From assembly GCA_049433485.1 (NCBI GenBank), contig JBMTEX010000001.1, forward strand, positions 2,688 through 66,687: 64,000 nucleotides of DNA. Reading direction: 5' to 3'. Each line of letters begins with the position of its first letter. Position 1 is the stretch's first letter. Shown here piece after piece: positions 10,857-61,102 of this stretch. Origin of the DNA: Ilumatobacteraceae bacterium (lineage in GTDB: Bacteria > Actinomycetota > Acidimicrobiia > Acidimicrobiales > Ilumatobacteraceae). The translations under genes and the position numbers were made by a program. A model generated the notes under the pieces. It was not told where the DNA came from and searched no databases. It worked only from the letters and a program-made list of their open reading frames with translations.

Positions 10857-10948
10857 TGTTCCCCCTTGTTGCTTAACCCTACTGATGTGGGGCCCGACAC
10901 GACCGCACGAGACGAGGTCACATACGATGACTTCAACAAGGGGAATGT

Positions 10949-31228: not shown

Positions 31229-31305
<77 letters not shown>

Positions 31306-42393: not shown

Positions 42394-42450
42394 GAGAATA
42401 GACGGTACTCGCCTAGGTAGGTGATTATCGGGTCTAGTACCGTCAGGCTT

Positions 42451-43431: not shown

Positions 43432-45474
43432 TCATGGCGTGCACGATGCCGAGCCGGCGTCGTATGTGAGATTGTCAACGGCGCTAATGAATCCCCACGA
43501 AAATGAGGTGGGAGTGAATGTCATTTGAACAACACCATGATCAGTATTCAACATGTACTCACTTCCTGGAACGGCTGTTCCTAATGGGTATACCTGTGCT
43601 CCACCAAGGCCCGAAATGAAGAGTGGTACTCCACCTGCCGCTGGTGCACCGCTGGCATCTAAGGGCGCGAAGCGCTCGTAATGATGGTCATGCGCCGTCA
43701 TCACTAGGTCGGCTCCGTTCGCAACGGATGCTTCCCACAAATGTCGTGCTGAAGGAGTTGCGTATCGGCCACTAGAGACAAATGGATGATGCATCATTAC
43801 AGCAGCGCATTTACCTTCAGATTGAGCACGTTGAAGTTCGCTGACGAGCCATGTGGTTTGTGCGGACGTTGCAGAACAGCCGGTGTACAACTGGCCTTGG
43901 CACCATGAATCAACAGCAATGATTCGCCACCCGCCTGCATCTGTTGTCCAATATGAGGCCGATAGTTCGCTGAAATATTCCACATACCCTGCAGCGCCAC
44001 TTGTGACGTATTCATGGTTACCGCGCACTGGGTATGTGATGTTCTTGAAAGCGCCCCATGTTGCTCCATAGAAATTTGTTAGATCGGAGATGCTGGCTGC
44101 TTCGTACTGGAGGTCGCCGAGCGCAATGACGCCATCGGGAGATAGCGAAGAAATGAGAGATGCAGTTGCTTGTTCACCACATTGACTGCCTGCTGGTCCG
44201 ATGCCGTATGCAGCGCGCCGAGTGGCGTTACATGCAATGTCTCCCGCAAGGATGATGCGCGCAGATTGGTCTGTGCCTATTGGCTCGAGACGAACTCCGT
44301 GGGGCCAAATTGCAATTCCGCTACGTCGAAGAGTCGTACTGGAGTCGCCCAATTGTCCAGTGCTATTGAGTCCCCAGCACCACATGCCAGAGTTACTTGC
44401 CGAAATTCCACAGGCATGCGTGTCTCCAGTTGCCACGGTACCCAGTAGGCCAACAGCTGACGACGGACGCACTTTTTGTGGAGTGGGTTTGGCAATGTAG
44501 CTTCCGTTTGCAAGCTGGCCGTACCTGTTGCGTCCCCAACACCATGTTGTACTCGCAATAGTTTGCGCACAGACAAACTCTGCACCGGCGTCAAGTGATG
44601 TGATGCCGGTGCGTCGACCAGTGACCGCTCTCGCGCGAGATGGACCCCATGGGGTGGCGAGTTGTCCGTAGTTATTGCGCCCCCAACATTGGGAGCGTGC
44701 GCTCGTAGACACAACACAGGTGAACGCTTCGCCAGTTGCAACACTGGTTGCTCTCACAATTGGCACATAGGTAGGTCGGGGGCGAGAAGAAGTCGGTTGT
44801 TGTCCCAATTGGTGAAAGTTGTTGCGTCCCCAGCACCACACAGATGTAGTTGTACGCACTGCGCATGTGTGGAGTTGCCCAACGTCTGCTTGAGCAACTT
44901 TTGAGATCAGTGCTCGCACTGGAATAGCAGAAGCTGCTCGATTGCCGTTGCCAAGTTGTCCGTATTTGTTTGCACCCCAGCACCACAGAGTTTCGTCACT
45001 CTTGCGAGCACAGATGTGATGAGCGCCGACGGAAACCGATGTCACCTGTGAAATGGGCATCTGTACAGGTGTTGGAGTCGGTGTTTTAGTGAGAAATGTC
45101 GGAGCATTAATTGGGTCGACGGCAATATCTAGAAGTCCCCAGCACCAGACGGATGTATCGGTAGAGACCGCGCACGTGCGTTGTCCACCAGCAGATACTG
45201 ACACCGCTGTGGCCATCAGGGATGGTGAGAATGCAATGGTGCGAACTGTGGTGCCAGTTCCAAGTTGACCAACGCTGTTGTCTCCAGTGCACCACACAGT
45301 TTCACTACGCACAATGCACGAGTGTCCGCTTCCTAACGATGGTGACGAAATGGATGGGGGAGTAATAACCGCTGGTGAATTAGTTCCCTGAGACGAGGCC
45401 GGTGAATAGACAAATAGAGCTGACACTGAGGCAACAACCACGATGACGATGTTCACGTGGGCTCGGCGAAGCAT
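43432..45474 (-). CDS. secreted RCC1-repeat beta-propeller fused to calcineurin-like metallophosphoesterase
   Basis: Signal peptide, then seven W(C)WG-x4-GQLG repeats, then the GDIAC / GDLQY / GNHEY / MMHHP / AHDHHYERF phosphoesterase motif series. Confidence 0.75.
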   Translation of the reverse strand: MLRRAHVNIVIVVVASVSALFVYSPASSQGTNSPAVITPPSISSPSLGSGHSCIVRSETVWCTGDNSVGQLGTGTTVRTIAFSPSLMATAVSVSAGGQRTCAVSTDTSVWCWGLLDIAVDPINAPTFLTKTPTPTPVQMPISQVTSVSVGAHHICARKSDETLWCWGANKYGQLGNGNRAASAIPVRALISKVAQADVGQLHTCAVRTTTSVWCWGRNNFHQLGQQPTSSRPRPTYVPIVRATSVATGEAFTCVVSTSARSQCWGRNNYGQLATPWGPSRARAVTGRRTGITSLDAGAEFVCAQTIASTTWCWGRNRYGQLANGSYIAKPTPQKVRPSSAVGLLGTVATGDTHACGISASNSGMWCWGLNSTGQLGDSSTTLRRSGIAIWPHGVRLEPIGTDQSARIILAGDIACNATRRAAYGIGPAGSQCGEQATASLISSLSPDGVIALGDLQYEAASISDLTNFYGATWGAFKNITYPVRGNHEYVTSGAAGYVEYFSELSASYWTTDAGGWRIIAVDSWCQGQLYTGCSATSAQTTWLVSELQRAQSEGKCAAVMMHHPFVSSGRYATPSARHLWEASVANGADLVMTAHDHHYERFAPLDASGAPAAGGVPLFISGLGGAQVYPLGTAVPGSEYMLNTDHGVVQMTFTPTSFSWGFISAVDNLTYDAGSASCTP

Positions 45475-46905: not shown

Positions 46906-48099
46906 TTATGGAACAGGAACCCAGCGCCAGTCGAGTTTGCAGATGGTGGGATCCACAATTTCCACGATGGACAATCCGATTACTGACGCACGCGCAGAAA
47001 GACCAGTTTCAGGACGAATAGCTGCGTGCGCTGGTGCCTGTTGACTAGCGCGCAACAAAATCTCTTGGGTGTTCGTTGCGTAATTGCCGAGCTGAGATGC
47101 GATGGCGAATGAATGGCGAGCGGCAATGAGGCTCTCAAGTCGGAAACGGCGCCACTGGTTGTACGACGGGGACATGTACTGAGTGAGAATCTCCGTGACC
47201 ATGGCGCGTTGATCTGTAGTTGTGAATACTTGAGACCAACTCTTGCCGTCATTTGCAAGTTGCGGCGGAAAGAGAACCTCTAGACAATCCGCTACGAGAG
47301 CATCTTTATTCTCGTACAAGCCGTAGATAGCTCCGACGCTGACACCTGCGCGACGTGCAATGCGAGACACGGTGGCGCGATGAATACCGGAGCGTGCGAT
47401 GACGTATTCGCTTGCTGAAATGAGAGCATCTCGGATGTCATCGCGCGTGGACGGAAATGCGTAAGGGGGTGGAGAAATATTTACTCCAGTTGGCTTTGTT
47501 GGTTTCGATGCCGTGCGAACAGCTTTGGTGAACATCTCCAACAGTGCAGCTGGATTAATCGGGTTGACGTCGCCTTGTTCGTACACCGAATTCAGTAACG
47601 CTGCACCAAACAGAGTTGCAAGTGCCGATACAACAGCTTGTCTGTTGGCGCCATCTGTGGATGGTCCAACGCCGCGGTCATCTAATAGACCGAGAATGTC
47701 TCGCTGCACTACTTCAGCAATGACTTCATCGCGACGTGACGCAACGATAATTTCCATTGCACTACCCAAATCGGGAACGGCATCGTGTGCACTCGCTTTT
47801 TCAAAGAGAGAACTGATGTACGCAACTTGTGATGGATCATTGTTGAGAACGGCGTCAACGAGTGGAACCAAAATCTCCGACAACATTGGCCAGAAGCTCT
47901 TCTCCCAGGCGAGGACAACTAGTTCTGAACGATCATCACATCGTGCGTAAATAACGCCACTAGAAAATCCTGCGTCTGCAGCAACTCTGGTGAGTGCCAT
48001 CTGGTCAACTCCCACCGTGCGAACAGAACGCGCTGCGCTCTCGGCAACCTTGAGGTCTGTTTGACGAGACTTGTCGGATTGGCGTGCTGTGGGGGCCAT
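46906..48099 (-). CDS. TetR-family regulator with two fused TetR modules
   Basis: Two separate HTH segments: MALTRVAADAGFSSGVIYARCDDRSEL near the N-terminus and ATVSRIARRAGVSVGAIYGLYENKDAL near residue 240. Confidence 0.7.
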   Translation of the reverse strand: MAPTARQSDKSRQTDLKVAESAARSVRTVGVDQMALTRVAADAGFSSGVIYARCDDRSELVVLAWEKSFWPMLSEILVPLVDAVLNNDPSQVAYISSLFEKASAHDAVPDLGSAMEIIVASRRDEVIAEVVQRDILGLLDDRGVGPSTDGANRQAVVSALATLFGAALLNSVYEQGDVNPINPAALLEMFTKAVRTASKPTKPTGVNISPPPYAFPSTRDDIRDALISASEYVIARSGIHRATVSRIARRAGVSVGAIYGLYENKDALVADCLEVLFPPQLANDGKSWSQVFTTTDQRAMVTEILTQYMSPSYNQWRRFRLESLIAARHSFAIASQLGNYATNTQEILLRASQQAPAHAAIRPETGLSARASVIGLSIVEIVDPTICKLDWRWVPVP

Positions 48100-49828: not shown

Positions 49829-50785
49829 CTACTTGATCCACTGAAGCAGATCAACTTGCACTCGAGTGAGTGGTTGTTGAACATCAATCCATTCACCAAT
49901 GCTTGGGCGGGGCCGGCCCCTGGCAACAAACAACATTGACGTATGCATATGCGGAGATTCCAGCATGTTCAAGCGTTGGCGCTGATAGTGAAATGGACTT
50001 CTGCCGTCTGGAAGCGGGAAAACTCCATGTGCAGTTCCACAACCAACAAGAACGATTTCGCCTGGCCCGTCCACCTTTACTTGTCGATATCCAGCGCGTG
50101 AACCAGACTCAATGGGGTGATGGTCAACAACATCTGCAGACAACTGCATCATTGATTTATCGCCGTGCCAGAGTGACGTGCCAAGACGAATACGAAAATC
50201 TACATCAGGATGATCTTGTCTCAATTTGGAATAGAGCTGTGCATTGAGGTGGCTGAGGTAAACGGGCACGTTCTTGTTGAGCAATGGTAACCACGCTTCA
50301 ATTTCTTTGATGTGCTGAAGTGGGTCACCCTCTAGTGGTGGATGAAGTGAAAACCCTCGAAGGCTGATGCGGGCTGCCGCAATGTCTGACAACAACGATT
50401 CCAACGTGTCAGGTGATACGCCGTACCTCATCATTGATGATTGAAGTTTCACAATGACGTCGCCCGTCCAGCCAGCGGTGGACAATGCCACGACGTGATG
50501 AGGTGAACCCACCGTGAGGATGGTGTTGAGCGGAAGATTCTTTGGTGGTGGAGTCAGCGTGGGAGTGAGAACAATGGGGGTGACATTCGGGGGAATGTCG
50601 CGAACCTCAAAAACTGTTCCCACAGCAAGTTCTCGCGATAATTGACCAGCCAGCGGCATGAGATTCCATCTGCGGAAGCCATAGCCGTTCCCCTTGACAA
50701 CTGGAACAAGACCTGGATGTTGCCGAGCAATGCCTTGAACATGAGAGAGCCACTTAGCTTCATGCACCGCGAGTCGAATTGTCAC
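49829..50785 (-). CDS. alanine racemase-fold (fold-type III PLP) protein
   Basis: VVKGNGYGF (PLP-lysine block), SSMMRYG, RLGTSLWHG and HMHTSM resemble Alr blocks. The GTG at 50785 lies 2 nt after the mftF stop. The 135-codon upstream extension in the ORF track overlaps mftF in another frame. Confidence 0.6.
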   Translation of the reverse strand: MTIRLAVHEAKWLSHVQGIARQHPGLVPVVKGNGYGFRRWNLMPLAGQLSRELAVGTVFEVRDIPPNVTPIVLTPTLTPPPKNLPLNTILTVGSPHHVVALSTAGWTGDVIVKLQSSMMRYGVSPDTLESLLSDIAAARISLRGFSLHPPLEGDPLQHIKEIEAWLPLLNKNVPVYLSHLNAQLYSKLRQDHPDVDFRIRLGTSLWHGDKSMMQLSADVVDHHPIESGSRAGYRQVKVDGPGEIVLVGCGTAHGVFPLPDGRSPFHYQRQRLNMLESPHMHTSMLFVARGRPRPSIGEWIDVQQPLTRVQVDLLQWIK

Positions 50786-50787
50786 CC

Positions 50788-52158
50788 CTATGACCGTAGT
50801 CGCAATGGAGACCTTGTAATTGTCGGAATGAGACAACGAAGCGAACGCAAACGTAGGGCACCCCACCACACGCCAGTTCCGTACGCGAGGTTGTCGAAGA
50901 TACGAAGTCCCATGTAACCGAAGATGCGTTCGGGCTTGTGCCGAACCAGCCCGTACACCGCAGGTATGAGAAGGCTGGCAAAAAGGGCGAAACCGGCACT
51001 GAACGAGAACAGAGCGAGGACAAAAAAGATTGGCCACCATGCGCGAGCGATTGCCGATGCGAGAAGTCTGATGGTGGATGCGAGGCCCTGCGTGGTGATA
51101 CGGGCTCGTTGATTCAGCGACAGCCCAGAACGACGAAGAGTGAGGAGGTACCACAGGTGAACAAGTGGCAAGAGTGGGAGAAAGACCCACACGTAGCCAA
51201 ACAAGAGCGCAATGGCCGGAAGCAACAGCACAATGTTTGCTCGAAGTGGAGAAACATATGAACGATGGGATGCGCTTAACGCAGCAGCACTTGAGCCGTA
51301 CCCGAATCGTTGTTTCAGTAATTCGCGCACCGTCATACGAGTTTCATGTGTGCAGGTCAGTGTGGGTTCGTATCGGCAGATGTGACCAGCATCTGTCATG
51401 CGCCATACGAAATCAACGTCTTCTCCCATGCGCATGTTGTCTGTGAATCCGCCGATGTGTCGAACTACATCAGTGCGACAGACGAGCGCCGCGGCCGGAA
51501 CATAAGGCACACGAGAAAATGGTCGGATGAGCGCAGGGTCGTTTCCTAAATCGAGAGGCGAGTGGTGCGCGTCGTATTCACCAGTGAGTCGACCATTGTC
51601 GGAACTAACGATGCGTGGTGCAACAAGTGAGACGCGTTCGTCATTCATTTGAGCTGCAAGTTGTCGTAGGCATTCAGATGTGATCTGCACGTCGTCATCC
51701 ACAAAGGCCACAAAAGGAGTAGTGACATGCTGTAATCCAGTGTTTCTTGCAACGCCAGGACCTTGATTGGAGTCGTGGCGAATCACTGTGGCACCACTAA
51801 TGCTGAAAGGCTCAGGTGAAGCATCATCTACAACGATGACGGTGAGTCCAATCAGTGACTGCACTAAGTGAACCAATCGATCAAGATCGCGGCTTTCCCG
51901 AAGAAATGTCGGAATGACCACGGTGATGTCAGTTGCAGGAACTGGCATATGCCACAGGGGGTGCGCGGCTCCCGTGGCAACAAGACGGCTGGTAAGAGCC
52001 TCATGCCCGTCGGGCAACAAGTCGTTATTTTGCACCAATGTCAAAATGTCTGCACCTTTTTCTGACACTTTGAAGAACGTCAACGGCGACCCAGCGATGA
52101 GAGATAACCCGTCTGTGGAGCGATTCCACTGAACGTCTGGTCGTAGGCGAATTGTCAT
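50788..52158 (-). CDS. mftF: mycofactocin-associated glycosyltransferase MftF (GT2 with C-terminal membrane domain)
   Basis: GT2 blocks VVIPTFLRE ... VIVVDDASPEP ... AFVDDDV, then a multi-TM C-terminus. It sits directly after mftE with an ATGA overlap (ATG 52158). Confidence 0.8.
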   Translation of the reverse strand: MTIRLRPDVQWNRSTDGLSLIAGSPLTFFKVSEKGADILTLVQNNDLLPDGHEALTSRLVATGAAHPLWHMPVPATDITVVIPTFLRESRDLDRLVHLVQSLIGLTVIVVDDASPEPFSISGATVIRHDSNQGPGVARNTGLQHVTTPFVAFVDDDVQITSECLRQLAAQMNDERVSLVAPRIVSSDNGRLTGEYDAHHSPLDLGNDPALIRPFSRVPYVPAAALVCRTDVVRHIGGFTDNMRMGEDVDFVWRMTDAGHICRYEPTLTCTHETRMTVRELLKQRFGYGSSAAALSASHRSYVSPLRANIVLLLPAIALLFGYVWVFLPLLPLVHLWYLLTLRRSGLSLNQRARITTQGLASTIRLLASAIARAWWPIFFVLALFSFSAGFALFASLLIPAVYGLVRHKPERIFGYMGLRIFDNLAYGTGVWWGALRLRSLRCLIPTITRSPLRLRS

Positions 52159-52859
52159 GTTGGAGAATGTAACCACTCAGCAGCACAAGACTGCAAACGT
52201 TGTACAAGGGAATGGACATAGAGATGAAGAACTGTTTCTCCGTGTCGAGCAGTTGCAGTGCTGGGGTCTCCAAGGACACCCGATGGCGAAACACCTTTCA
52301 CGCCCACATGACGAAGGTCATCAATGGTGGCGGCCGATGCTTGAACTGAACTAATCAGATCTGTTCGCACAGAGTGTGGGGCAATGTGCAGCATCAGAGA
52401 TGTTTCGGTATGGCCCGCATGCATGTCGCCACCGGCATATGACGGCAGCGTCCACACTGAGTGTGTGATGTGTTCATAGTCCAACGCAGAAGTGATCATC
52501 TGCAATCCGTCGTAGTTGCCACCATGCCCGTTAACAAGCAAGACGCCTGCAGACCAGGACGCCGCCGACCTGCAGATTGACACCACCGAAGCAGATAACG
52601 CATCTGTACCTGTGCTGAGTCCGCCCACAAATCCATCGTGTTCGTCGCTGGCAGTAATGGGTAATAGTGGGGCGCGCAGAAAGTCTTCGGTGTTGATATC
52701 AGGATGATTGAACGCATCATCAACAACTCGAGAAACAATCACGCTGTCTGTGTCCAACGGGAGATGTGGCCCATGTTGCTCCCATGAACCAAGTGCTAAG
52801 ACGAGAATCTTCTTTCCATGTGGAATCTCAATGGACGTTGGTGTCCGATTGTTAATCAT
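52155..52859 (-). CDS. mftE: mycofactocin peptidase MftE (creatininase family)
   Basis: LGSWEQHGPHLPLDTD, LLVNGHGGN and MHAGHTETS creatininase metal-site motifs. ATG 52859 overlaps the dedA stop by 8 nt. Confidence 0.8.
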   Translation of the reverse strand: MINNRTPTSIEIPHGKKILVLALGSWEQHGPHLPLDTDSVIVSRVVDDAFNHPDINTEDFLRAPLLPITASDEHDGFVGGLSTGTDALSASVVSICRSAASWSAGVLLVNGHGGNYDGLQMITSALDYEHITHSVWTLPSYAGGDMHAGHTETSLMLHIAPHSVRTDLISSVQASAATIDDLRHVGVKGVSPSGVLGDPSTATARHGETVLHLYVHSLVQRLQSCAAEWLHSPT

Positions 52860-53475
52860 GGTGCGATGGCGACTTTTTCCCGCGAACGTAACGAATGATT
52901 TCAAGAATAATGGTGGCACCTATTGCCAGTGAGAATGCAACCAAGAATGCCTTGGTGTGATTGTCTTCAAATGTGCGTCCACCAATGAAGCCAAGCATGG
53001 TGGCGTACGTTGCCCAAATGGCTGCTGCAATTGCAGACCACTTCATAAACCATTTCGTTGATTGTCCAGTGATACCGCATGTGAGTGTGACGATGGTGCG
53101 ACCACCAGGCACAAAACGCGCGGTAATGAGAAGTTCGCCACCGCGGGTTTCAATTTGTTTATGCGCCCACTGCAAGCGTTGTCGACCCTTGTTGCTCTTG
53201 TTGTATCTACGTTGTAGTCGTTCCGAAAAGAACACTCCAATGTGGTAGCTGAAGTTGTCACCAGCAAATGCGCCAAGACCTGCAAAAAGAATGACGAGCG
53301 ACCAATGAAGTTCATGTAGTCCGGCCGCGACGCCACCAATGATGACCATTGTTTCGCTTGGAACGATGGGAAAGAATGAATCGAGAAATGCGATAGACAA
53401 CAGCACTACATAGAACCATGGTGAGCTGGAGTAGTCCTTCAGCCAATCAAATGCGGAATTGACAAAATCCAGCAT
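52852..53475 (-). CDS. DedA family (VTT/SNARE-associated domain) membrane protein
   Basis: FLDSFFPIVPSETMVIIGG and ITARFVPGGRT blocks are typical of DedA. ATG 53475. Confidence 0.75.
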   Translation of the reverse strand: MLDFVNSAFDWLKDYSSSPWFYVVLLSIAFLDSFFPIVPSETMVIIGGVAAGLHELHWSLVILFAGLGAFAGDNFSYHIGVFFSERLQRRYNKSNKGRQRLQWAHKQIETRGGELLITARFVPGGRTIVTLTCGITGQSTKWFMKWSAIAAAIWATYATMLGFIGGRTFEDNHTKAFLVAFSLAIGATIILEIIRYVRGKKSPSHHD

Positions 53476-53479
53476 GTGG

Positions 53480-54070
53480 TTAGTGGGCGCTACCAGTGAC
53501 TGGTGGTTCGCTTCCGCTGAGAAGTCGTTTGATATTCGAGAGGTGGCGAATCTCAATGAGTAAGCCCAGCCCAACAAATGCGAGCACTTCCCATGCGGGC
53601 TTGTCGGTGATGATCAACAACACAACAACTAGCGGGACGATAGCGATGGAGGCAATGGACGCCTTCTTCGACAACATCATGATGGCAACCCAACTCACTG
53701 CAGCAATGATCATGATGACGGGGTGCAAAGCAAGTAGAACTCCGCCGCCAGTAGCGATTCCTTTGCCACCTTTAAAACTACGAGTGACAGGGAAGATATG
53801 ACCAACGATTGCCATCGCGCCGCAGATATATGCACTGGGGCGGTGGCCAATCAGCAGGAGAGTAGGGATAGCGCCTTTGGCGGCATCAAGAACGAACACC
53901 AGCGAGCCATATTTCCAGCCAAGTGCTCGTGCAACATTGCTGGCACCTGGATTACCAGACCCAAATGAGGTGATGTCCACACCTTTTGCACGAGCGATGA
54001 CAATTGCGCTTGGCAACATGCCGAGTATGTATGCGCCGACGATTCCCAGAACAAGATTCAGAACGTTCAC
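53480..54070 (-). CDS. plsY: glycerol-3-phosphate acyltransferase PlsY
   Basis: GSGNPGASNVARALG, LDAAKGAIP and HIFPVTRSFKGGKGIATGGG motifs. The GTG at 54070 shares GTGA with the mftC stop. Confidence 0.8.
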   Translation of the reverse strand: MNVLNLVLGIVGAYILGMLPSAIVIARAKGVDITSFGSGNPGASNVARALGWKYGSLVFVLDAAKGAIPTLLLIGHRPSAYICGAMAIVGHIFPVTRSFKGGKGIATGGGVLLALHPVIMIIAAVSWVAIMMLSKKASIASIAIVPLVVVLLIITDKPAWEVLAFVGLGLLIEIRHLSNIKRLLSGSEPPVTGSAH

Positions 54071-55182
54071 GCGTTGACCTTCTTGCGTGCTGGCTTTGAG
54101 TGGTCCATTGATGGGCGAGGAAGAATGGCAACGGGCGTAGATGCCAAATATTCTTCGCCATCTCCGCCAACGCATTCGGGGTCTGGGCCATCTAGTGGGA
54201 TGCCCGTGAAGAATTTCGCCGCCATGCATCCGCCTTGGCATGCATCAAACGAGCCACATGATGCGCATGCGCCAGCGCTTTGTGGTTCGCGAAGTTCAGT
54301 GAACAGAGCAGACTCTCGCCACACTTTTGTGAAACCACCGTTGTCGAGAACCGACCCGGCCTTGAACTGATCGTGAATGACGAATGGGCAGGCGTACACA
54401 TCACCAAGTGGATCAATGAGACATACCACGCGCCCTGCTCCACACATGTTGAGGCCAGGCAATGATTCCCCGAATGCATTTAGATGGAAGAAAGAATCTC
54501 CCGTGAGTACGTTCTCACCGTGTGCCAACAACCAGTCGTAAATCTGTCGTTGTTGTGCATTGGTGGGGTGTAGTTCATTCCATGTGTCTGCACCGCGACC
54601 TGCAGGTCGCAAACGCGTGATGCGAAGTTGTGCACCATATGAATCCGCAAGGGCTTTGAAATCGTCTAGTTGATCAACGTTGTGTCGTGTAACAACAACG
54701 GAAATCTTGAATTGACCAAATCCAGCATCACGCAAGTTCTCCATAGCGCGAATAGCGGTGTCGTACGAGCCGGCGCCACGCACTGCATCGTTCACTTCTG
54801 CCGTGGTGCCGTCCAAGCTGAGTTGAATGTCGAGATAATCCAATGCTGCGAGTCGCTCGGCATTCTTCTTGTCAATGAACGCACCATTTGTTGAGAACTT
54901 CACGCCGATTCCATTTGCAATGGAATGTTCCAGAATCTCAAAGAAGTCGCGACGAACCATTGGCTCACCGCCACCGATGTTGATGTAGAAGACTTGTAAA
55001 TCTCGCAACTCGTCGAGGACAGCTTTTGCTTGTTCCGTGGAAAGTTCTCGCGGGTCTCGCTGACCGCTACTAGACAAACAGTGGACGCACTCGAGGTTGC
55101 ATGCGTATGTCAGTTCCCATGTGAGACAGATGGGCGCATCGAGGCCCGACTTCATTTGTTGAACAAGTGATTCAGCGGACAC
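54067..55182 (-). CDS. mftC: mycofactocin radical SAM maturase MftC (SPASM domain)
   Basis: GLDAPICLTWELTYACNLECVHCLSSSG is almost identical to mycobacterial MftC. C-terminal Cys-rich SPASM region (CGAGRVVC ... CPF ... CASCGSFDACQGGC). Confidence 0.92.
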   Translation of the reverse strand: MSAESLVQQMKSGLDAPICLTWELTYACNLECVHCLSSSGQRDPRELSTEQAKAVLDELRDLQVFYINIGGGEPMVRRDFFEILEHSIANGIGVKFSTNGAFIDKKNAERLAALDYLDIQLSLDGTTAEVNDAVRGAGSYDTAIRAMENLRDAGFGQFKISVVVTRHNVDQLDDFKALADSYGAQLRITRLRPAGRGADTWNELHPTNAQQRQIYDWLLAHGENVLTGDSFFHLNAFGESLPGLNMCGAGRVVCLIDPLGDVYACPFVIHDQFKAGSVLDNGGFTKVWRESALFTELREPQSAGACASCGSFDACQGGCMAAKFFTGIPLDGPDPECVGGDGEEYLASTPVAILPRPSMDHSKPARKKVNA

Positions 55183-55438
55183 GAACTATCTCCGAGCTGG
55201 TAAGCGATGAAATTGCCTTCACAAAGGCGGGCCACCGAGACTCCTCAACACCTTCTGCCACGAGAGCATCGCGCAGGCTTGGGTGAGAGGCCATTGATCG
55301 CACAACGCGAACAATGTCTGGGTGGCGAAGAAACACCAATCGACGGTTGCCGTAGTGATAGGCAAGCGCACCGAATGGTTCTGGCCGCAGTGCGACCTGG
55401 GGGTGCATCTCGCACGCCGACTCAAGGGTGAGTGTCAT
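55172..55438 (-). CDS. mftB: mycofactocin precursor chaperone MftB (PqqD/RRE family)
   Basis: The HPQVALRPEPFGALAYHYGNRRLVFL block matches MftB. ATG 55438 preferred over TTG 55486, which lies inside mftA. Confidence 0.8.
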   Translation of the reverse strand: MTLTLESACEMHPQVALRPEPFGALAYHYGNRRLVFLRHPDIVRVVRSMASHPSLRDALVAEGVEESRWPAFVKAISSLTSSEIVRVR

Positions 55439-55460
55439 AGGGGCGTGTGAGAGAGACGGA

Positions 55461-55580
55461 TCAGTAGACGCCGCACATGCCGTCAATGGAGATTTCCTCT
55501 ACGAGAAGCTCTTCCGTGACGACTGCTTCGGTGGTGTCTGTCTGGCTGTCGGCGATGTCCTGGATGTTGTCTTGTTCCAT
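55461..55580 (-). CDS. mftA: mycofactocin precursor peptide MftA
   Basis: 39 aa: MEQDNIQDIADSQTDTTEAVVTEELLVEEISIDGMCGVY. It has the invariant C-terminal IDGMCGVY and an acidic leader. It is hidden inside the 75-aa ORF 55461..55688. Confidence 0.9.
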   Translation of the reverse strand: MEQDNIQDIADSQTDTTEAVVTEELLVEEISIDGMCGVY

Positions 55581-55687
55581 ATATACGACAGTACCCGCCA
55601 CGAGCCCCACTAGAGAAGGTTGGCGCAAGATGGGTAATGTCGGAGACATCCACCGGGTCGTCTGGTGGCCAACTAAAGGGGACTTCA

Positions 55688-56803
55688 ATGAAGACCAAGG
55701 CAGCCGTTCTCTGGGAAGTTAATGCTCCATGGAGTGTGGAGGAGATTGAACTCGACGCACCAGGCCCAGGCGAGGTTCTTGTAAAGATCGCCGCATCTGG
55801 AATGTGCCACTCAGACGAGCACCTCACCACAGGCGACCTTCCATTCGCACTCCCAATTGTTGGTGGTCACGAAGGTGCTGGCGTTGTTGAGCAGGTAGGT
55901 GAAGGTGTTAGCTGGCTTGCGCCTGGCGACCATGTTGTTTTTGGCTTCATCCCATCGTGCGGACGTTGCCCCAGCTGTTCCACCGGACACCAGAACTTGT
56001 GTGACCTCGGCGCTTTGATGGGTCTCGGAATGCAAATTTCAGACGGCACATCACGTCACCATGCACAAGGCAAAGATCTCACCTTGATGTGCATGTTGGG
56101 AACGTTTGCTCACCACACAGTGGTGAATGAGGCATCCTGCATCAAGATTGAAAAAGACGTTCCACTCGACAAGGCATGTTTGCTTGGTTGTGGCGTTGTC
56201 ACCGGATGGGGTTCGGCTGTGTATGCCGCAGACGTGGCTCCTGGCGACACCGTTGTTGTCGTGGGCGTTGGCGGTATCGGTGCAAATGCAATTCAAGGTG
56301 CAAAGTTGGCTGGCGCGAAGCGCATTGTTGCTGTCGACCCCATTGAGTTCAAGCGCGAAAAGGCGATGGAATTTGGTGCAACACACACTGCATCATCAAT
56401 GGCCGAAGCCTTGCCGCTTCTGCAAGACATCACATGGGGAACTATGGCGAACAAAGTCATCATGACCATGGGTGTTGGCGATGGTCAGGTCATGGGTGAG
56501 GCAATGGCACTTGCTGCAAAGCGCGGCCGTGTTGTTGTCACCAATATTCACCCAGCTTTTGAAACTGGTGGAGCAAACATGAGTCTTCTCGATCTCACAT
56601 TGATGGAGAAGCAAGTTGTTGGTTCATTGTTTGGTTCGGGTAACCCACGCGCAGACATTCCAAAACTTCTTGGTCTGTATCGCGAAGGTCAACTCGATCT
56701 TGATGGTCTTGTCACAAAGACATACCCGCTTGAAGGTATCAACGAGGGTTACCAAGACATGCGCGACGGCAAGAACATCCGTGGCGTTTTGGTCTACGAA
56801 TAA
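55688..56803 (+). CDS. Zn-dependent alcohol dehydrogenase, NDMA-dependent / nicotinoprotein-like (mycofactocin-associated type), paralog 1
   Basis: MKTKAAVLWE, GMCHSDEH, GGHEGAG and VVGVGGIGANAIQGA motifs. SD AAGGGGA lies upstream. Divergent from mftA. Confidence 0.85.
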   Translation: MKTKAAVLWEVNAPWSVEEIELDAPGPGEVLVKIAASGMCHSDEHLTTGDLPFALPIVGGHEGAGVVEQVGEGVSWLAPGDHVVFGFIPSCGRCPSCSTGHQNLCDLGALMGLGMQISDGTSRHHAQGKDLTLMCMLGTFAHHTVVNEASCIKIEKDVPLDKACLLGCGVVTGWGSAVYAADVAPGDTVVVVGVGGIGANAIQGAKLAGAKRIVAVDPIEFKREKAMEFGATHTASSMAEALPLLQDITWGTMANKVIMTMGVGDGQVMGEAMALAAKRGRVVVTNIHPAFETGGANMSLLDLTLMEKQVVGSLFGSGNPRADIPKLLGLYREGQLDLDGLVTKTYPLEGINEGYQDMRDGKNIRGVLVYE

Positions 56804-56842: not shown

Positions 56843-57994
56843 ATGAAATCACGAGCAGCAGTTCTCTACGGGCTTGATCAACCTTGGGTTGTAGAAGAAA
56901 TTGAAGTTGATGAGCCCAAAGCCAATGAAGTATTGGTGAATTGGAAAGTGGCAGGCATGTGCCACTCAGACGAACACTTCGTGACTGGCGACATGGTTCC
57001 ACCAAAGGAATTGCTCGCCATGATGGGTGTTGACGATTTCTTCCCATTCATTGGCGGCCACGAAGGTGCTGGAGTTGTTGTGAAGTGCGGCCCCGGTGTT
57101 ACTTCATTGCAGCCCGGTGATCACGTGTCGGCAAGTTTTGTTCCATCATGTGGACGGTGCCGTTATTGCTCAACAGGTCGACAGAACTTGTGCAACATGG
57201 GCGCAGGAACTCTCACTGGTGGCATGATCACAGACGGCACGCACCGTCATCATGTGAAAGATGGTCGCCCTGTCAAGTTGATGGCAAAACTCGGAACATT
57301 CTCCGAGTACGCGACAGTTGCCGAGGCATCACTCATCAAGGTGGAGAAAGATCTTCCACTTGATTGCGTGGCACTTGTGTCATGTGGAGTTGCTACTGGT
57401 TGGGGTTCTGCAACAAATCGCGCAGATACACAACCTGGCGACACCGTTGTGGTTGTTGGCATTGGTGGCATCGGTATTAATGCAGTGCAAGGTGCCCGCA
57501 TGGCCGGTGCAAAGCGCATCATTGCAATTGATCCTGTTGAGTTCAAGCGCGAAAAGGCAATGGAAATGGGTGCAACGCACACGTTCTCATCTATGGCTGA
57601 AGCTATTCCTCACATCAATGAACTCACGTGGGGAGAAATGGCAGATCGCGTCATTATGACCCCTGGCGTTCTGCATGGAGACATGATGGGCGAAGGCATG
57701 GCCATGGTAGGTAAAGGTGGCACATGTGTTGTCACTGCAATTTCGCCAATGCATGAAACATCTGCAGACATCAACTTGTTCCAACTTGCAATGTGGAACA
57801 AGGAAGTAAAGGGAACAATCTTTGGCAGCTTGAACCCACGTGCAGATATTCCACGCTTGTTGGACATGTATCGCGTAGGTGATTTGAAGTTGGATGAACT
57901 CATTACACGTCGGTACACATTGGATGAAATCAACGAGGGTTATCAGGCCATGCGCGATGGTTTGAATATTCGCGGCGTCATTGTTAATGACTGA
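56843..57994 (+). CDS. Zn-dependent alcohol dehydrogenase, same subfamily, paralog 2
   Basis: Alignable end to end with paralog 1 (GMCHSDEH, GGHEGAG, VVGIGGIGINAVQGA, DPVEFKREKAMEMGATHT). A 22-nt identical DNA block occurs at 56343-56364 and 57537-57558. Confidence 0.85.
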   Translation: MKSRAAVLYGLDQPWVVEEIEVDEPKANEVLVNWKVAGMCHSDEHFVTGDMVPPKELLAMMGVDDFFPFIGGHEGAGVVVKCGPGVTSLQPGDHVSASFVPSCGRCRYCSTGRQNLCNMGAGTLTGGMITDGTHRHHVKDGRPVKLMAKLGTFSEYATVAEASLIKVEKDLPLDCVALVSCGVATGWGSATNRADTQPGDTVVVVGIGGIGINAVQGARMAGAKRIIAIDPVEFKREKAMEMGATHTFSSMAEAIPHINELTWGEMADRVIMTPGVLHGDMMGEGMAMVGKGGTCVVTAISPMHETSADINLFQLAMWNKEVKGTIFGSLNPRADIPRLLDMYRVGDLKLDELITRRYTLDEINEGYQAMRDGLNIRGVIVND

Positions 57995-58916
57995 TTCTTC
58001 AGCACTACGCCAAGCGCTCTCTACGCAAGTTGTTGGTCGTCGTCGCGAACTTGAATTAGTTCTCGCTGCGCTCGCAGCCGACCGCCATGTATTGTTGGAA
58101 GGTCCACCAGGGACCGGTAAGTCGACGTTGTTGCGTGCTGTTGCACAAGGTCTGGGCATTGGTTTTGAATTCGTGGAAGGCAATGCCGAATTAACTCCGG
58201 CACGCCTTGTGGGACACTTCGACCCTGCACGAGTCCTCAACGAGGGGTACGACCCATCTGTGTTTGTTGACGGGCCATTGGTCAGTGCGCTTCGTGACGG
58301 CTCTTTGTTGTATGTAGAAGAAATCAACCGCATCCCAGAAGAAACTCTCAACGTTCTCATCACCGTGATGAGCGAAGGCGAATTGAATGTTCCACGGCTT
58401 GGACGCATAGCTGCCTCTCCAGGTTTCCGACTTGTGGCGGCAATGAATCCGTTCGATGCGGTTGGTACTGCCCGAATTTCAGGTGCGGTGTATGACCGCG
58501 TATGTCGCGTATCAATGTCGTACCAATCTGCTGACGAAGAAGCTGCAATCGTTCGACGCAATCTTGACGATGCAGATGTATCAGACGATTGGTTAAACAA
58601 AGCAGTCTCTGTGGTTCGCCGTACCCGTTCGCACTCAGATTTACGCGTAGGTTCATCGGTTCGTGGCGCGGTGGACTTTTCAAAAGTTGCTGTATCTCTT
58701 GCATCACTACGCGAACTAACCATCAACGATCCAAGTGTTGGTGTTGACGCTGCACTAGTTGCGCTGTCTGGCCGTGTACGAGTTCGAGAGGGAAGTGTGC
58801 GCACTCCTGAAGAAATAGTCACTGAAATTTGGCAAGACGTCTTCGGCAGAGTGGAAGGCGAGGGCGGCGAGGGAAAAGCTGGAGCCCCGACGAACCGGGG
58901 CACGACCTCCCCGTAA
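57987..58916 (+). CDS. MoxR-like AAA+ ATPase
   Basis: Walker A LLEGPPGTGKST, Walker B LLYVEEINR and an AAMNPFD sensor block. The ATG at 57987 overlaps the ADH2 stop by 8 nt. Confidence 0.85.
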   Translation: MTDSSALRQALSTQVVGRRRELELVLAALAADRHVLLEGPPGTGKSTLLRAVAQGLGIGFEFVEGNAELTPARLVGHFDPARVLNEGYDPSVFVDGPLVSALRDGSLLYVEEINRIPEETLNVLITVMSEGELNVPRLGRIAASPGFRLVAAMNPFDAVGTARISGAVYDRVCRVSMSYQSADEEAAIVRRNLDDADVSDDWLNKAVSVVRRTRSHSDLRVGSSVRGAVDFSKVAVSLASLRELTINDPSVGVDAALVALSGRVRVREGSVRTPEEIVTEIWQDVFGRVEGEGGEGKAGAPTNRGTTSP

Positions 58917-59842
58917 CAAAGGAAGGCGAAGACGCCGACCAAGCAGTTGCAGAAGCTGGAAAACGAACAACATCGCGTCGTGACTTGTCGCGTAATGAGA
59001 ACTTTGAACAAATCTCTCCAGAAGTTGGCGAGCTAGATGAAGCGGCACTTGACGAAGCCATGCAGAACAGTCCCGATGAAACATTGGGCTTATTAGCAGA
59101 TCTCACTGGGGCAACAGATCCGAAACTTCGCGAACTAGCAAGAAAACTTGCCGGGCGTTTGATGCTGGAGTTAGGAAATCGTGGTCGAGCGCGTCCTCGA
59201 GGGATTGGCAAAATTGTTGAACAGCCGTATCGACCAGATGGTGGCGACATTGACATTGATGCAAGTTTGGAAGCAATCACCGAATCACGTCGCGGTCACG
59301 CAATAGACCCAGAACGTTTGCGACTTCGCGGATGGCAGAAGCCAGGTACAGCGTTTTGTTTGTTGTTAGACAGAAGCGGTTCTATGGGTGGTCAACCGCT
59401 GGCAACTAATGCTGTGGCCACTGCCGCTATTGCAAGTCGGAACCCGGATGATTACAGCGTGATCGCGTTTGGCAAAGACGTAGTGGTGACGAAGAGTCAA
59501 GATGTACCGAAATCGAGCGATCGGGTCATTAACGATGTGTTGACTTTGCGTGGGCATGGCACAACAGATTTGGCCGGCGCCTTGTTAGTAGCGCGTCAAC
59601 AATTGTCTCGATCACGTGCTGGTCGAAAAGTGGCCATTTTGTTGTCTGATTGCCGTGCCACCGTGGAGGGCGATGCGGAAAATGCGGCACACGGAATGGA
59701 CGAGTTAGTGGTGATTGCCCCTGTAGACGACCACGATGAAGCAAAAGCATTTGCCGCGCGCGTTGGCGCACGCTTGGCGTTAGTAGGTGGGCCAAGCGAC
59801 ATTCCAGAGGTCTTGGCCCGTGTGTTGGAGCCAATTGCTTAG
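58829..59842 (+). CDS. VWA domain protein (MoxR partner)
   Basis: MIDAS-like LLLDRSGSMGG, TDLAGAL and LSDCRA blocks. The start is uncertain. ATG 58829 overlaps moxR by 88 nt, and the next ATG is at 59060. Confidence 0.7.
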   Translation: MARRLRQSGRRGRRGKSWSPDEPGHDLPVTKEGEDADQAVAEAGKRTTSRRDLSRNENFEQISPEVGELDEAALDEAMQNSPDETLGLLADLTGATDPKLRELARKLAGRLMLELGNRGRARPRGIGKIVEQPYRPDGGDIDIDASLEAITESRRGHAIDPERLRLRGWQKPGTAFCLLLDRSGSMGGQPLATNAVATAAIASRNPDDYSVIAFGKDVVVTKSQDVPKSSDRVINDVLTLRGHGTTDLAGALLVARQQLSRSRAGRKVAILLSDCRATVEGDAENAAHGMDELVVIAPVDDHDEAKAFAARVGARLALVGGPSDIPEVLARVLEPIA

Positions 59843-59848
59843 GTAGTT

Positions 59849-61102
59849 CTAGTACTGGCAGTTTGAGTCGTTTGGCGGCACAACGCCGCGCGTGCTTTGC
59901 TCAATTAACACCTTCGGCACTGTGGTAGTTGTAATGCTTTGTGCCGGTTTTGTTGTTGGAGTTGATTTTGAAGCAACTGTTGTAGTTGTTGCGATTGCGG
60001 CAAGAGTTGTGGTGGTGACGGTATTTGTATCTGCGGGTGACGCGCCGGAGATTGTTGACTTCAAGCTTGCCTTTCCTTGGAATACAGCCAGAATCTTTTT
60101 CGATGTTTCGCTCTCGAGGTCAGGGAGTATGACGGCCATGTCGTCTATTAACGTTCCTGTACCTGGCATGGTGTAGCTGCCCATGGTGTCGGTATTGAAG
60201 TTCTTCATTGCTTGACCAAGTTGAAGAACTGTTAATGGAGACAATTTGTCATCCGTGATGATGTTCTTCAATGCGGCATTCAAGATTCCAGAGGCAACTC
60301 GCGGATTTTTCTTTGCCTTCTCAAGCGACTTACGAATAACTCGCTTCATAAAATCTTGTTGACGACTGATGCGACCCCAATCTGATGTGCCGTCTGAAGT
60401 CCACTTCTTTGTCTTTGGATTCAACCACTGGTAATGACGCGAGCGCATATAAGCCAATGCGTGATCACCTTGGAAGGTGTAACAGACGCGAGCACGAAGA
60501 ACTTTGAATCCAGTTTTCTTGTCTCGAGCTCTGTACATGAATGGTACGCGCACCCCGCCAACGGCGTCCACAATTCCCGCAAATGCGCAAAAGTCAACGT
60601 TGATGTAGTGATCAATGGAGATTCCGAAGTTCTCTTTGATGTTTCTAATTAGTCGATTCGGATTCTTCTTTTCAAAGTTTGCATTGATGCGATTGCTGCG
60701 ATTTGATTCAGCTTGCCTCACCCACATATCTCGGGGAAATGACAAAATTGCTGCTTGGTTGTCGATGGGGTTCACTCGCACCACCATTAACGTGTCGCTT
60801 CGTTCGCCGTAGCCACTGCGATTACTGAATCCGCCATAAAAGGGTGAATCTTTGCTGATGCATGCGTTGTTGTCAGAGCCGGTGATGAGGAAGTTCTTTG
60901 CGGTGCGGTCACCCTCAGGAAGGTCAAGATTTCCATCACCCAGAGCAACCGGGTCGATGGAGACCACTTTGCGATTACCCAACTTCCAGTTGGCGTACAG
61001 GAGTCCACTTCCTGCCAGCACTGTGACAACTGCAAGCGTGATATTGAAAATCACAAAAGCGCGCTGTTTTCCTGAATGCTTGTAGCGGGGCTGGGTGGAC
61101 AT
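59849..61102 (-). CDS. LCP (LytR-CpsA-Psr) family cell-envelope phosphotransferase
   Basis: N-terminal TM anchor, NFLITGSD, RSDTLMVVRVNP and FPRDMWV blocks, plus a Thr-rich C-terminal tail. Confidence 0.85.
   Translation of the reverse strand: MSTQPRYKHSGKQRAFVIFNITLAVVTVLAGSGLLYANWKLGNRKVVSIDPVALGDGNLDLPEGDRTAKNFLITGSDNNACISKDSPFYGGFSNRSGYGERSDTLMVVRVNPIDNQAAILSFPRDMWVRQAESNRSNRINANFEKKNPNRLIRNIKENFGISIDHYINVDFCAFAGIVDAVGGVRVPFMYRARDKKTGFKVLRARVCYTFQGDHALAYMRSRHYQWLNPKTKKWTSDGTSDWGRISRQQDFMKRVIRKSLEKAKKNPRVASGILNAALKNIITDDKLSPLTVLQLGQAMKNFNTDTMGSYTMPGTGTLIDDMAVILPDLESETSKKILAVFQGKASLKSTISGASPADTNTVTTTTLAAIATTTTVASKSTPTTKPAQSITTTTVPKVLIEQSTRGVVPPNDSNCQY

Follow-up and report, generated by a model that had tools for sequence, protein, structure and literature searches.

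The window analysed here, a stretch of 64 kb, carries a bona fide mycofactocin gene set from an uncultured freshwater actinobacterium of the Ilumatobacteraceae type. All five mycofactocin (mft) genes and both neighbouring NDMA-dependent dehydrogenases exceed the curated NCBIfam cutoffs (HMM bit scores). The overall reading that we favour, with somewhat better than even confidence, is that of a working mycofactocin system whose mft genes occupy gaps in a backbone of envelope genes, would descend from an OYE/ETF-type cluster and would obtain their last step from an unlinked gene.

The mycofactocin genes and their neighbours

Curated HMMs and Pfam bore out the original prediction of an eight-gene run on the minus strand, consisting of mftA, mftB, mftC, plsY, dedA, mftE, mftF and an alanine-racemase-like (alr-like) gene. 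The precursor gene mftA (55461–55580, minus strand; TIGR03969, 51 bits, cutoff 25) encodes 39 aa with the C-terminus EEISIDGMCGVY. It is followed on the same strand by genes for the precursor-binding chaperone MftB (55172–55438; TIGR03967, 95 bits, cutoff 33), the radical SAM/SPASM maturase MftC (54067–55182; TIGR03962, 626 bits, cutoff 265), the creatininase-family peptidase MftE, which releases AHDP (52155–52859; TIGR03964, 207 bits, cutoff 172), and the GT2 glycosyltransferase MftF (50788–52158; TIGR03965, 337 bits, cutoff 280). MftB has 88 aa when read from the ATG at 55438, as it is called on identical contigs, and its reading frame is open up to 55486.

Every junction claimed in the original prediction matched exactly when read in the sequence: mftB and mftC overlap by 11 nt, mftC and plsY have GTGA in common (54067–54070), plsY and dedA are 4 nt apart, dedA and mftE overlap by 8 nt, mftE and mftF have ATGA in common, and 2 nt separate mftF from the alr-like gene. 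The interval between mftA and mftB, absent from that prediction, is 22 nt. Of the gene calls on four near-identical contigs, three have plsY starting from an ATG at 54019 instead; since the PlsY HMM already aligns from residue 7 of the product read from the GTG, the coupled start is favoured. Immediately 5' of mftA, an alignment of seven relatives revealed a conserved block (55588–55619, minus strand) in which CTTCTCTAGTGG and GTACT.TC are invariant. No inverted repeat was found in this block. A –10-like hexamer of the TANNNT type, TACTGT (55593–55588), ends 7 nt before the mftA ATG, and from its position the mftA transcript may be leaderless.

Two NDMA-dependent Zn alcohol dehydrogenase genes are located on the plus strand (55637–56803 and 56843–57994), scoring 558 and 556 bits against TIGR03989 (cutoff 440). 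The first is of the mycofactocin-dependent nicotinoprotein type, and its true start is likely the ATG at 55688, the TIGR03989 alignment beginning at residue 19. Co-directional with them is a gene for a MoxR-type AAA ATPase (57987–58916, plus strand; Pfam AAA_5, AAA_3, bpMoxR), which is found in mft-containing loci and missing from mft-less ones. It is followed by the gene for its VWA-domain partner (58985–59842, plus strand), assigned by synteny and by Pfam VWA and VWA_CoxE matches on the called gene.

For comparison, 80 related Acidimicrobiia loci were collected, 42 of which are window-like, with the order lcp-[vwa, moxR, ADH]-mftABC-plsY-(dedA)-mftEF-alr. In 38 of 39 related loci the last 12 residues of MftA are the same, so the mft system is under selection. 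It might be argued that the cluster is a decaying remnant which no longer yields a redox-active cofactor, considering that the island encodes no OYE, ETF or MftD function, that sporadic mft loss is known (PMC3023750) and that four relatives have lost mft. However, all open reading frames are intact in the 42 window-like species-level loci, where MftC is 76–99% identical and the two mycofactocin-type dehydrogenases are kept beside the cluster at 70–100% identity. Together with the invariant MftA core, this makes decay scarcely credible.

A conserved row of envelope genes

The plsY product, a glycerol-3-phosphate acyltransferase (53480–54070, minus strand; Pfam G3P_acyltransf, 151 bits), scores 134.5 bits against TIGR00023, just below the cutoff of 137.2; its orthologues at the same site in relatives devoid of mft genes pass that cutoff (138.8). 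The adjacent dedA (52852–53475, minus strand) encodes a DedA/VTT-domain membrane protein (Pfam VTT_dom, 72 bits). In four relatives the row lcp-plsY-dedA-alr-acyltransferase is intact without mft genes, and in an Alr tree these relatives branch among mft-bearing lineages. At its upstream end the row is bounded by lcp, for a LytR-CpsA-Psr glycopolymer transferase (59849–61102, minus strand; TIGR00350, 107 bits), which directly adjoins plsY in the mft-less loci L076 and L087. Whether plsY might be confined to one strain was answered by synteny: it is present here in every related locus in which the region is visible. Judged by synteny, plsY, dedA and the alr-like gene are thus housekeeping members of a conserved envelope backbone, valS-lcp-plsY-dedA-alr-acyltransferase, and not mycofactocin content. 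The gene set described in the original prediction as a non-canonical operon stands, but its view of these three genes as additional mycofactocin content does not, given their retention in the four mft-less relatives. Furthermore, dedA is dispensable at this site, being missing from 17 of the 42 window-like loci; it is present in mft-less loci.

Around plsY and dedA, mycofactocin-related genes fill three neighbouring positions. Such a pattern would be odd for chance insertion, and the two genes may accordingly have some functional link to mycofactocin. One such link would be the recruitment of PlsY and DedA to lipid-link glycosylated mycofactocin, or to move it or a lipid-carrier intermediate across the membrane. 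In each of the two architectures considered below, plsY and dedA have mycofactocin-associated genes to either side, MftF is a membrane-associated GT2 enzyme, and undecaprenyl-phosphate transporters are found among DedA relatives (weak UptA matches). We nevertheless regard recruitment as improbable, since both genes stay at the site in mft-less relatives, dedA is so often absent from window-like loci, and the Streptomyces, Haloterrigena, Mycolicibacterium and Thermomicrobium clusters contain neither of the two.

The last gene of the run (49829–50785, minus strand) encodes a compact, 318-aa PLP enzyme of the alanine racemase family (PF01168, 45 bits), which is probably the amino-acid (alanine) racemase of the lineage. 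A profile of the family matches alanine racemases in the PDB (E = 1e-10), and the Lys and Tyr motifs coincide in the alignment. The AlphaFold2 model (pLDDT 92) has the two-domain fold of Alr (PDB 1xfc, 2dy3, 1sft); its best 50 Foldseek matches (TM-score 0.70–0.79) comprise 49 alanine, serine, lysine or broad-spectrum racemases and one engineered protein, no other enzyme class being found among them. The PLP-lysine motif VVKxNxYG and the catalytic Tyr are kept, equivalents of Lys129, Arg136, His166 and Arg219 are conserved, and K31, Y35, K113, R120, H148, R200 and Y233 are invariant within the family. The protein differs from Alr in its length (roughly 360–390 aa in the latter), in sharing just 14–19% identity with solved structures, and in its NCBIfam alr score of 16 bits, far under the cutoff of 218.

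Could this enzyme stand in for MftD and, through a PLP-dependent half-transamination, turn AHDP, an alpha-amino lactam, into the keto-amide? Its gene lies directly 3' of mftF and comes after mftF in all mft-bearing relatives, alpha-amines are substrates of PLP enzymes, and MftD is absent. However, every two-base racemase residue is retained, including the carboxylate-binding Arg, whereas AHDP has no carboxylate, and fold-type III enzymes are not known to act as transaminases. The gene is also found at the same site in the four mft-less relatives, is lacking in the Streptomyces and Haloterrigena clusters that are themselves without MftD, and is separated from mftF by an opposite-strand DUF4395 gene in many relatives. 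A role as MftD substitute is thus very unlikely, and racemase activity remains the preferred assignment.

Relation to OYE/ETF-type clusters and the source of the last step

Compared with the canonical cluster (Mycobacterium tuberculosis Rv0691c–Rv0697 and plasmid NZ_CP108236.1 of Streptomyces sp. NBC_00080, where mftR and mftG lie beside mftABCDEF), the window has orthologous mftA, B, C, E and F above the curated cutoffs, an identical precursor end (IDGMCGVY) and, likewise, adjoining NDMA-dependent Zn dehydrogenases. It differs in lacking mftD, mftG and an MftR-class regulator, in having plsY and dedA between mftC and mftE, and in the racemase-family gene after mftF.

The predicted absence of mftD, of a GMC (MftG-like) gene and of mftR from the 64 kb was upheld by tblastn and, for MftR, by HMM. 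Escherichia coli LldD and BetA gave a best tblastn E-value of 1.4 against the window, and two annotated MftD proteins had no match there at E ≤ 1. None of the three genes was found in 7.9 kb further right of the window either, and no MftD-like match was present in the window, in locus L096 or in the 1.23 Mb of the 80 related loci. The claim that the 64 kb hold no adjacent TetR gene was incorrect: 1.7 kb downstream of the operon end there is a TetR-family gene (46906–48099, minus strand), syntenic only within the subclade of the window. Its 397-aa product has two TetR-like halves, with a TetR_N match at residues 226–271 (53 bits) and a second, weaker HTH match at residues 9–68. This protein was rejected as an MftR-class regulator (no match to TIGR03968; 19.8 against a cutoff of 285 for MftR2).

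The mycobacterial A-B-C-D-E-F(-G)/mftR cluster turned out to be the wrong yardstick, as OYE/ETF-type relatives are without mftD and mftG by design. In that architecture, covered by NCBIfam TIGR03996, TIGR03997, NF038209 and TIGR04503, mftABC is followed by FadH/OYE oxidoreductases 1 and 2, ETF alpha, FixC, FixX and ETF beta and then by mftE/F, with no mftD or mftG in any example. Colinear annotated clusters of this kind were confirmed by tblastn to lack both genes on the Streptomyces yangpuensis plasmid NZ_CP102515.1, plasmids of Streptomyces sp. NBC_00564 and NBC_00557, and Haloterrigena turkmenica pHTUR01; for Streptomyces these absences refer to the plasmids. MftD was found on just 4 of 12 mftC-bearing plasmids. 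At least 17 Ilumatobacteraceae relatives are of the OYE/ETF type, with the order ...(OYE2)-dedA-etfA-fixC-fixX-etfB-mftE-mftF-alr. The full view is provided by locus L090, valS-lcp-...-mftABC-OYE1-plsY-OYE2-dedA-etfA-fixC-fixX-etfB-mftE-mftF-alr-acyltransferase, the proteins of which exceed the cutoffs of the four models named above.

The window and the OYE/ETF clusters are alike in having neither mftD nor mftG and in the colinear order of their remaining genes; in same-family relatives the cluster is found at exactly this chromosomal location, and plsY and dedA take equal relative positions in it. Unlike these clusters (e.g. that of the Ilumatobacteraceae MAG GCA_964355165.1), the window has no OYE, ETF, FixC or FixX, which leaves mftABC, mftEF and the dehydrogenases. 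On balance, its mft set would thus be a stripped-down form of the OYE/ETF architecture from which the OYE and ETF genes have additionally been lost, colinearity with distant taxa and a single-protein neighbour-joining tree pointing weakly to loss and not gain. MftC sequence identity does not tell the two architectures apart.

Oxidation of AHDP to premycofactocin, the redox-active keto-amide, is not encoded in the island and would therefore have to come from an unlinked gene. A canonical FMN-dependent mftD (TIGR03966) elsewhere in the genome would reduce the locus to a standard pathway, merely rearranged and otherwise the same. The chemistry requires an oxidative deaminase, AHDP is the expected intermediate given canonical MftA, MftC and MftE, and MftD is the sole enzyme demonstrated for this step (PMC11778925); moreover, the visible part of the genome amounts to the 64 kb plus 7.9 kb. 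Against this, MftD, where present, is said to occur in one copy together with the cluster (PMC3023750), yet in the 80 related loci no MftD lies within ~10 kb, though ADH, OYE and ETF genes cluster there, and it is missing from the entire Streptomyces and Haloterrigena plasmids bearing OYE/ETF-type clusters. We consider an unlinked mftD a real but somewhat doubtful possibility, and lean slightly towards a genome without TIGR03966-type MftD, in which a non-homologous oxidoreductase would oxidise AHDP. MftD, MftE and MftR were reported in 2011 to be 'not universal' (PMC3023750). About 25% of mftC genomes are without mftG, among them those of Ilumatobacter, Iamia and Aquihabitans (PMC11778925 with supplement), and in cultured Acidimicrobiia with mftC it is mftG that is missing genome-wide (PMC11778925 supplement).

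A predicted pathway and its place in the lineage

By analogy with known mycofactocin systems, MftB would present the precursor MftA to MftC, which would decarboxylate and cyclise its Val-Tyr end; MftE would then release the lactam AHDP by cutting, and MftF would glycosylate the core. The presumed users of the cofactor are the two dehydrogenases, transcribed divergently from the mft genes and accompanied by the MoxR/VWA pair. As the mft genes appear to have settled in the gaps of the older envelope row, all eight genes can be read as one tightly packed unit that may be co-transcribed. Their OYE/ETF-associated ancestor would have lost its OYE and ETF genes within this lineage, the AHDP oxidation being supplied from elsewhere in the genome. 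Since the layout is common to dozens of related species, it constitutes a lineage-wide variant and not a one-off oddity.

Composition of the mycofactocin operon

The minus-strand run of eight genes (49829–55580) described in the original prediction is real, and its five mft genes all score above the curated NCBIfam cutoffs. These are mftA (55461–55580, −; TIGR03969, 51 bits against a cutoff of 25), the chaperone gene mftB (55172–55438, −; TIGR03967, 95 against 33), mftC for the radical SAM/SPASM maturase (54067–55182, −; TIGR03962, 626 against 265), the peptidase gene mftE (52155–52859, −; TIGR03964, 207 against 172) and the glycosyltransferase gene mftF (50788–52158, −; TIGR03965, 337 against 280). 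The MftA sequence ends in IDGMCGVY, with the CGVY terminus of the core-system definition (Haft 2011). The other three members of the run are a plsY-family gene (53480–54070, −; Pfam PF02660, 151 bits against 24), dedA of the DedA/VTT family (52852–53475, −) and a racemase-like gene (49829–50785, −) carrying an N-terminal alanine-racemase domain (Pfam). With TIGR00023 the PlsY protein reaches 134.5 bits, the cutoff being 137.2; its orthologues in two related loci lie above that value (L082, 142.6; L076, 138.8).

Every junction of the original prediction was reproduced by reading the sequence. The mftB and mftC genes overlap by 11 nt, GTGA is common to mftC and plsY, 4 nt separate plsY from dedA, the latter overlaps mftE by 8 nt, ATGA is common to mftE and mftF, and 2 nt lie between mftF and the racemase-like gene; the mftA/mftB gap, not included there, is 22 nt. 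Because the gaps are so short or are replaced by overlaps, the arrangement suggests that the eight genes would be read as one transcript. Upstream of mftA, a block at 55588–55619 (−) is invariant in seven relatives and contains a TACTGT motif that ends 7 nt before the ATG; this may be a −10-like element giving rise to a leaderless mftA mRNA. Scans for promoters, terminators and inverted repeats returned nothing informative.

Two NDMA-dependent alcohol dehydrogenase genes (TIGR03989; 558 and 556 bits against a cutoff of 440) adjoin mftA in divergent orientation. The core mycofactocin set, namely MftA, MftB, MftC, MftF and at least one linked nicotinoprotein dehydrogenase of family TIGR03989, TIGR03971 or PF00465 (Haft 2011 definition), is thus complete in the window. 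A third Zn-dehydrogenase (9807–10973) was considered as a further enzyme of the mycofactocin type and set aside, being Tdh/IolM-like and not a member of TIGR03989. The two NDMA-dependent dehydrogenases are followed by genes for a MoxR AAA ATPase and a VWA protein (57987–59842, +). In relatives this pair accompanies the mft module; a VWA/AAA pair is also found beside the mft cluster of Haloterrigena.

Genomic context in related loci

Searching with a profile of the racemase-like protein yielded relatives from 583 or more species-level genomes. The loci of the best 80 were fetched and all proteins of the window locus were mapped onto them; all 80 belong to Acidimicrobiia or to metagenome-assembled genomes (MAGs) of Ilumatobacteraceae type. 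The largest group (42 loci) resembles the window, with the order lcp–[vwa, moxR, ADH]–mftABC–plsY–(dedA)–mftEF–alr, where alr denotes the racemase-like gene and dedA is missing in 17. In a second group (17 loci), etfA, fixC, fixX and etfB stand upstream of mftE wherever the contig is long enough, two short contigs having etfB only; dedA, and sometimes an OYE-type gene, lies farther upstream. Four loci (L076, L084, L086 and L087) contain no mft gene and read lcp–plsY–dedA–alr–acyltransferase, with valS preceding lcp in L076 and L087, the two in which this was checked. The remaining 17 were too short or differently arranged to be classified.

The plsY, dedA and racemase-like genes keep the same relative order and the same flanks (lcp upstream, acyltransferase and uracil-DNA glycosylase (UDG) genes downstream) whether the mycofactocin island is full, reduced or absent. 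Therefore, these three genes belong to the backbone of the site, a row of cell-envelope genes, and are not cargo of the island. The non-canonical content ascribed to the operon is accordingly real as content, but plsY, dedA and alr are explained as ordinary backbone genes, and tight translational coupling alone does not make them members of the mycofactocin pathway. The island itself is well preserved: 38 of 39 loci share the last 12 residues of MftA without change and MftC identity across window-like loci is 76–99%, from which it follows that the mycofactocin system is kept by selection. The window locus also recurs at >99.7% identity on several metagenome contigs.

In most relatives (L022–L043, L048, L060 and L090), an oppositely oriented DUF4395 gene (167 aa) stands between mftF and the racemase-like gene; the closest subclade of the window lacks it, and only 2 nt separate the two there. 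Several MAG records with an Acidimicrobiia-type locus (L008, L011–L013, L026, L032, L034, L038, L039, L043, L062 and L086) are titled 'uncultured Bifidobacterium sp.', 'Bifidobacterium breve' or 'Ferrithrix thermotolerans DSM 19514', titles that look like mislabelled taxonomy.

The racemase-like protein (318 aa), whose gene is coupled to mftF, was considered as a substitute for MftD. Solved alanine racemases matched a profile of the protein (E = 1e-10), and both its PLP-lysine motif (VVKGNGYG; VVKANAYxHG in the racemases) and the motif of its catalytic tyrosine lined up with those of PDB 2dy3 and 1xfc. An AlphaFold2 model (pLDDT 92) has the two-domain Alr fold, and 49 of its best 50 Foldseek matches (E = 2e-17, TM-score 0.70–0.79) are amino-acid racemases, the other being an engineered protein. 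With the best NCBIfam alr model the score is 16 bits, the cutoff being 218. K31, Y35, K113, R120, H148, R200 and Y233 are invariant, K31 and Y233 across 15 homologues; from our reading of the alignment, we take the seven to be the counterparts, in the Geobacillus enzyme, of Lys39, Tyr43, Lys129, Arg136, His166, Arg219 and Tyr265. The conserved carboxylate-binding arginine points to an amino acid, and not the lactam AHDP, as the substrate. With the catalytic residues and this arginine kept, and with the gene persisting in relatives that have no mft genes, replacement of MftD by the racemase-like protein was rejected as the main explanation.

Absence of mftD, mftG and mftR from the region of the locus

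The usual account of mycofactocin biosynthesis follows the A-to-F cluster of mycobacteria, with MftD producing the redox-active centre and MftG recycling the cofactor. The original prediction found neither an LldD-like ORF nor a GMC oxidoreductase in the 64 kb, and both tblastn and family scans agree. Escherichia coli LldD and BetA have no tblastn match with E <1 in the window, and two annotated MftDs (from a Mycolicibacterium chubuense plasmid and from Thermomicrobium roseum) have none at E <= 1. The BetA search for MftG (TIGR03970 class) was likewise without a match in the window or in the related loci. No FMN_dh or GMC domain was detected in 47 of the ~60 window ORFs of at least 90 aa (Pfam, with NCBIfam for several); the family scans left out about a dozen short ORFs (92–209 aa), and tblastn covered the whole window. 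Three flavin-type candidates are all that the scanned ORFs offer: a MenJ-like geranylgeranyl reductase, an acyl-CoA dehydrogenase and an NAD(P)H oxidoreductase. They show no synteny with mft and were discarded as flavin oxidases that might deaminate AHDP.

Beyond the window, an MftD-like ORF occurs in none of the best 80 related loci (1.23 Mb). A near-identical metagenome contig contains no MftD in the 7.9 kb that it adds at the right end, and tblastn found no MftD of the TIGR03966/PF01070 type in L096. A look-up with the GroEL-like protein of the window, aimed at an extension to the left, gave no match.

The statement that no TetR gene exists anywhere in the 64 kb does not hold: the ORF at 46906–48099 (−) encodes a 397-aa protein of two TetR-like halves, with a strong TetR_N domain at residues 226–271 and a weaker HTH match at 9–68. 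Its gene has a uracil-DNA glycosylase gene on one side and an amidase gene on the other, and its conservation is confined to the window's own subclade. As MftR it was rejected, since it has no match to TIGR03968, scores 19.8 against 285 with the MftR2 model NF038211 and is syntenic in that subclade only. Scans of 46 other window ORFs (Pfam or NCBIfam) revealed no TetR_N domain, about a dozen short ORFs lying outside the scan. With the single TetR found in the window failing both models, no MftR-class gene is visible, as had been predicted. The absence of mftD, mftG and mftR near the locus is a trait of the lineage and not a peculiarity of one strain.

Among other features of the window, a tRNA-Met gene (CAT; 31229–31305, +) is the sole Rfam/ARAGORN match in 64 kb. 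A 680-aa protein (43432–45474, −) has both RCC1/WD40-like repeats and a metallophosphatase domain (Pfam) and matches no NCBIfam model. Three ORFs have no Pfam match, those of 458 aa (41089–42465, −), 554 aa (5623–7287, +) and 294 aa (7441–8325, +), the first having no NCBIfam match either.

Relationship to OYE/ETF-type clusters and possible function

The absence of the three genes is tied to a second mycofactocin architecture that is recognised in databases but little studied. In the Ilumatobacteraceae MAG GCA_964355165.1 (L090), the gene order is valS, lcp, [vwa, moxR, ADH], mftA, mftB, mftC, an AAA_14 gene, OYE1, plsY, OYE2, dedA, etfA, fixC, fixX, etfB, mftE, mftF, [DUF4395], alr, acyltransferase and UDG. 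This OYE/ETF-type cluster (L090:7462–16096) includes FadH/OYE oxidoreductases 1 (TIGR03996, 692 bits against 628) and 2 (TIGR03997, 965 against 793) together with mycofactocin-associated ETF alpha (NF038209, 339 against 240) and ETF beta (TIGR04503, 209 against 200). The AAA_14/DUF4143 ATPase gene (L090:6124–7377), inserted between mftC and OYE1, was seen in this one Ilumatobacteraceae MAG.

The same components, in the order mftABC, OYE1, OYE2, ETF alpha, FAD oxidoreductase, 4Fe-4S protein, ETF beta and mftF/mftE, are annotated in RefSeq on plasmids of Streptomyces yangpuensis and of Streptomyces sp. NBC_00564 and NBC_00557, which contain neither mftD nor mftG (checked by tblastn). Haloterrigena turkmenica pHTUR01, one of the founding examples of the mycofactocin system (PMC3023750), has them as well, with one OYE gene. 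In L090, L092, L094, L097 (the NBC_00557 plasmid) and L098, two FadH/OYE Fe-S flavoenzyme homologues are paired with ETF alpha/beta and FixC/FixX. On the NBC_00557 plasmid, a 'type III PLP-dependent enzyme' is encoded ~3 kb downstream of mftE (L097:30024–31104), next to genes for an AMP-binding enzyme and a monooxygenase; tblastn shows no homology between it and the racemase-like protein, and it probably belongs to another cluster.

In the canonical, mycobacterial-type form, as in Streptomyces sp. NBC_00080, mftR and mftG stand beside mftABCDEF. The window has the MftE of this form and lacks its co-clustered MftD, MftG and MftR. With the OYE/ETF-type clusters, it shares the lack of both mftD and mftG (L090, L092, L094, L097 and L098), and MftD is found on only 4 of 12 mftC-bearing plasmids. 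Neither OYE oxidoreductases 1 and 2 nor ETF alpha/beta, FixC and FixX have a match in the window (tblastn for the former), whereas ETF alpha/beta with FixC/FixX is present in 17 related loci. Given the colinear OYE/ETF-type clusters in relatives and on plasmids, the window is best read as a reduced form of the OYE/ETF-type island. In a weak, single-protein neighbour-joining tree built from the racemase-like protein, the mft-less loci fall within a clade that also contains reduced and full forms; this lends some support to the reading and suggests that the mft-less state arose by secondary loss and that the OYE/ETF module dropped out two or more times. The two architectures cannot be told apart by MftC identities or by the MftC tree.

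If the proteins act like their homologues in the characterised pathway (summarised in PMC11778925), MftB and MftC would turn the Val-Tyr end of MftA into a lactam, MftE would release AHDP, MftF would glycosylate the core and the two nicotinoprotein dehydrogenases would use the finished cofactor. The oxidative deamination that forms the keto-amide is not encoded in the island and must be supplied by an unlinked gene, possibly a canonical mftD. Since both window-like clades drop OYE and ETF yet keep all else, the products of the OYE/ETF genes more probably use or recycle the cofactor than act as its sole deaminase. According to Graca et al. (2025), mftG is missing in ~25% of mftC genomes, and what substitutes for it was left as a question (PMC11778925); the cultured Acidimicrobiia Ilumatobacter coccineus, Iamia and two Aquihabitans strains are among those with mftC and without mftG (supplementary table therein). 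In the ~25% of mftC genomes without mftG, OYE, ETF and FixC/FixX together could provide the connection between mycofactocin and the quinone pool that is otherwise missing. In the searchable literature, we found no paper linking mycofactocin to ETF/OYE genes or to Acidimicrobiia, Ilumatobacter included.

A large freshwater and marine clade of Acidimicrobiia thus retains the precursor, maturase, peptidase, glycosyltransferase and dehydrogenases of mycofactocin under strong selection, in loci without MftD, MftG or MftR nearby. Its relatives tie the locus to the OYE/ETF-type architecture, which is present in annotation databases and of which no discussion was found in the searchable literature. 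What stands in for MftD, and for MftG where the latter is missing, is thereby made testable; with the reduced form, lacking both MftD and OYE/ETF, conserved in dozens of species, the question of premycofactocin without MftD becomes concrete. Tentatively, and with somewhat less than even confidence, we consider that an entire actinobacterial family, abundant in the environment, and the OYE/ETF-type clusters of Streptomyces and haloarchaea may make functional mycofactocin without any MftD-family enzyme. If so, a non-homologous premycofactocin synthase would exist and be still to be discovered, and in the fuller clusters FadH/OYE and ETF-FixCX would stand in for MftD and/or MftG, in oxygen-independent formation or re-oxidation of the cofactor with electrons passing to quinone. 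The minimal linked set would then be mftABC and mftEF with a dehydrogenase.
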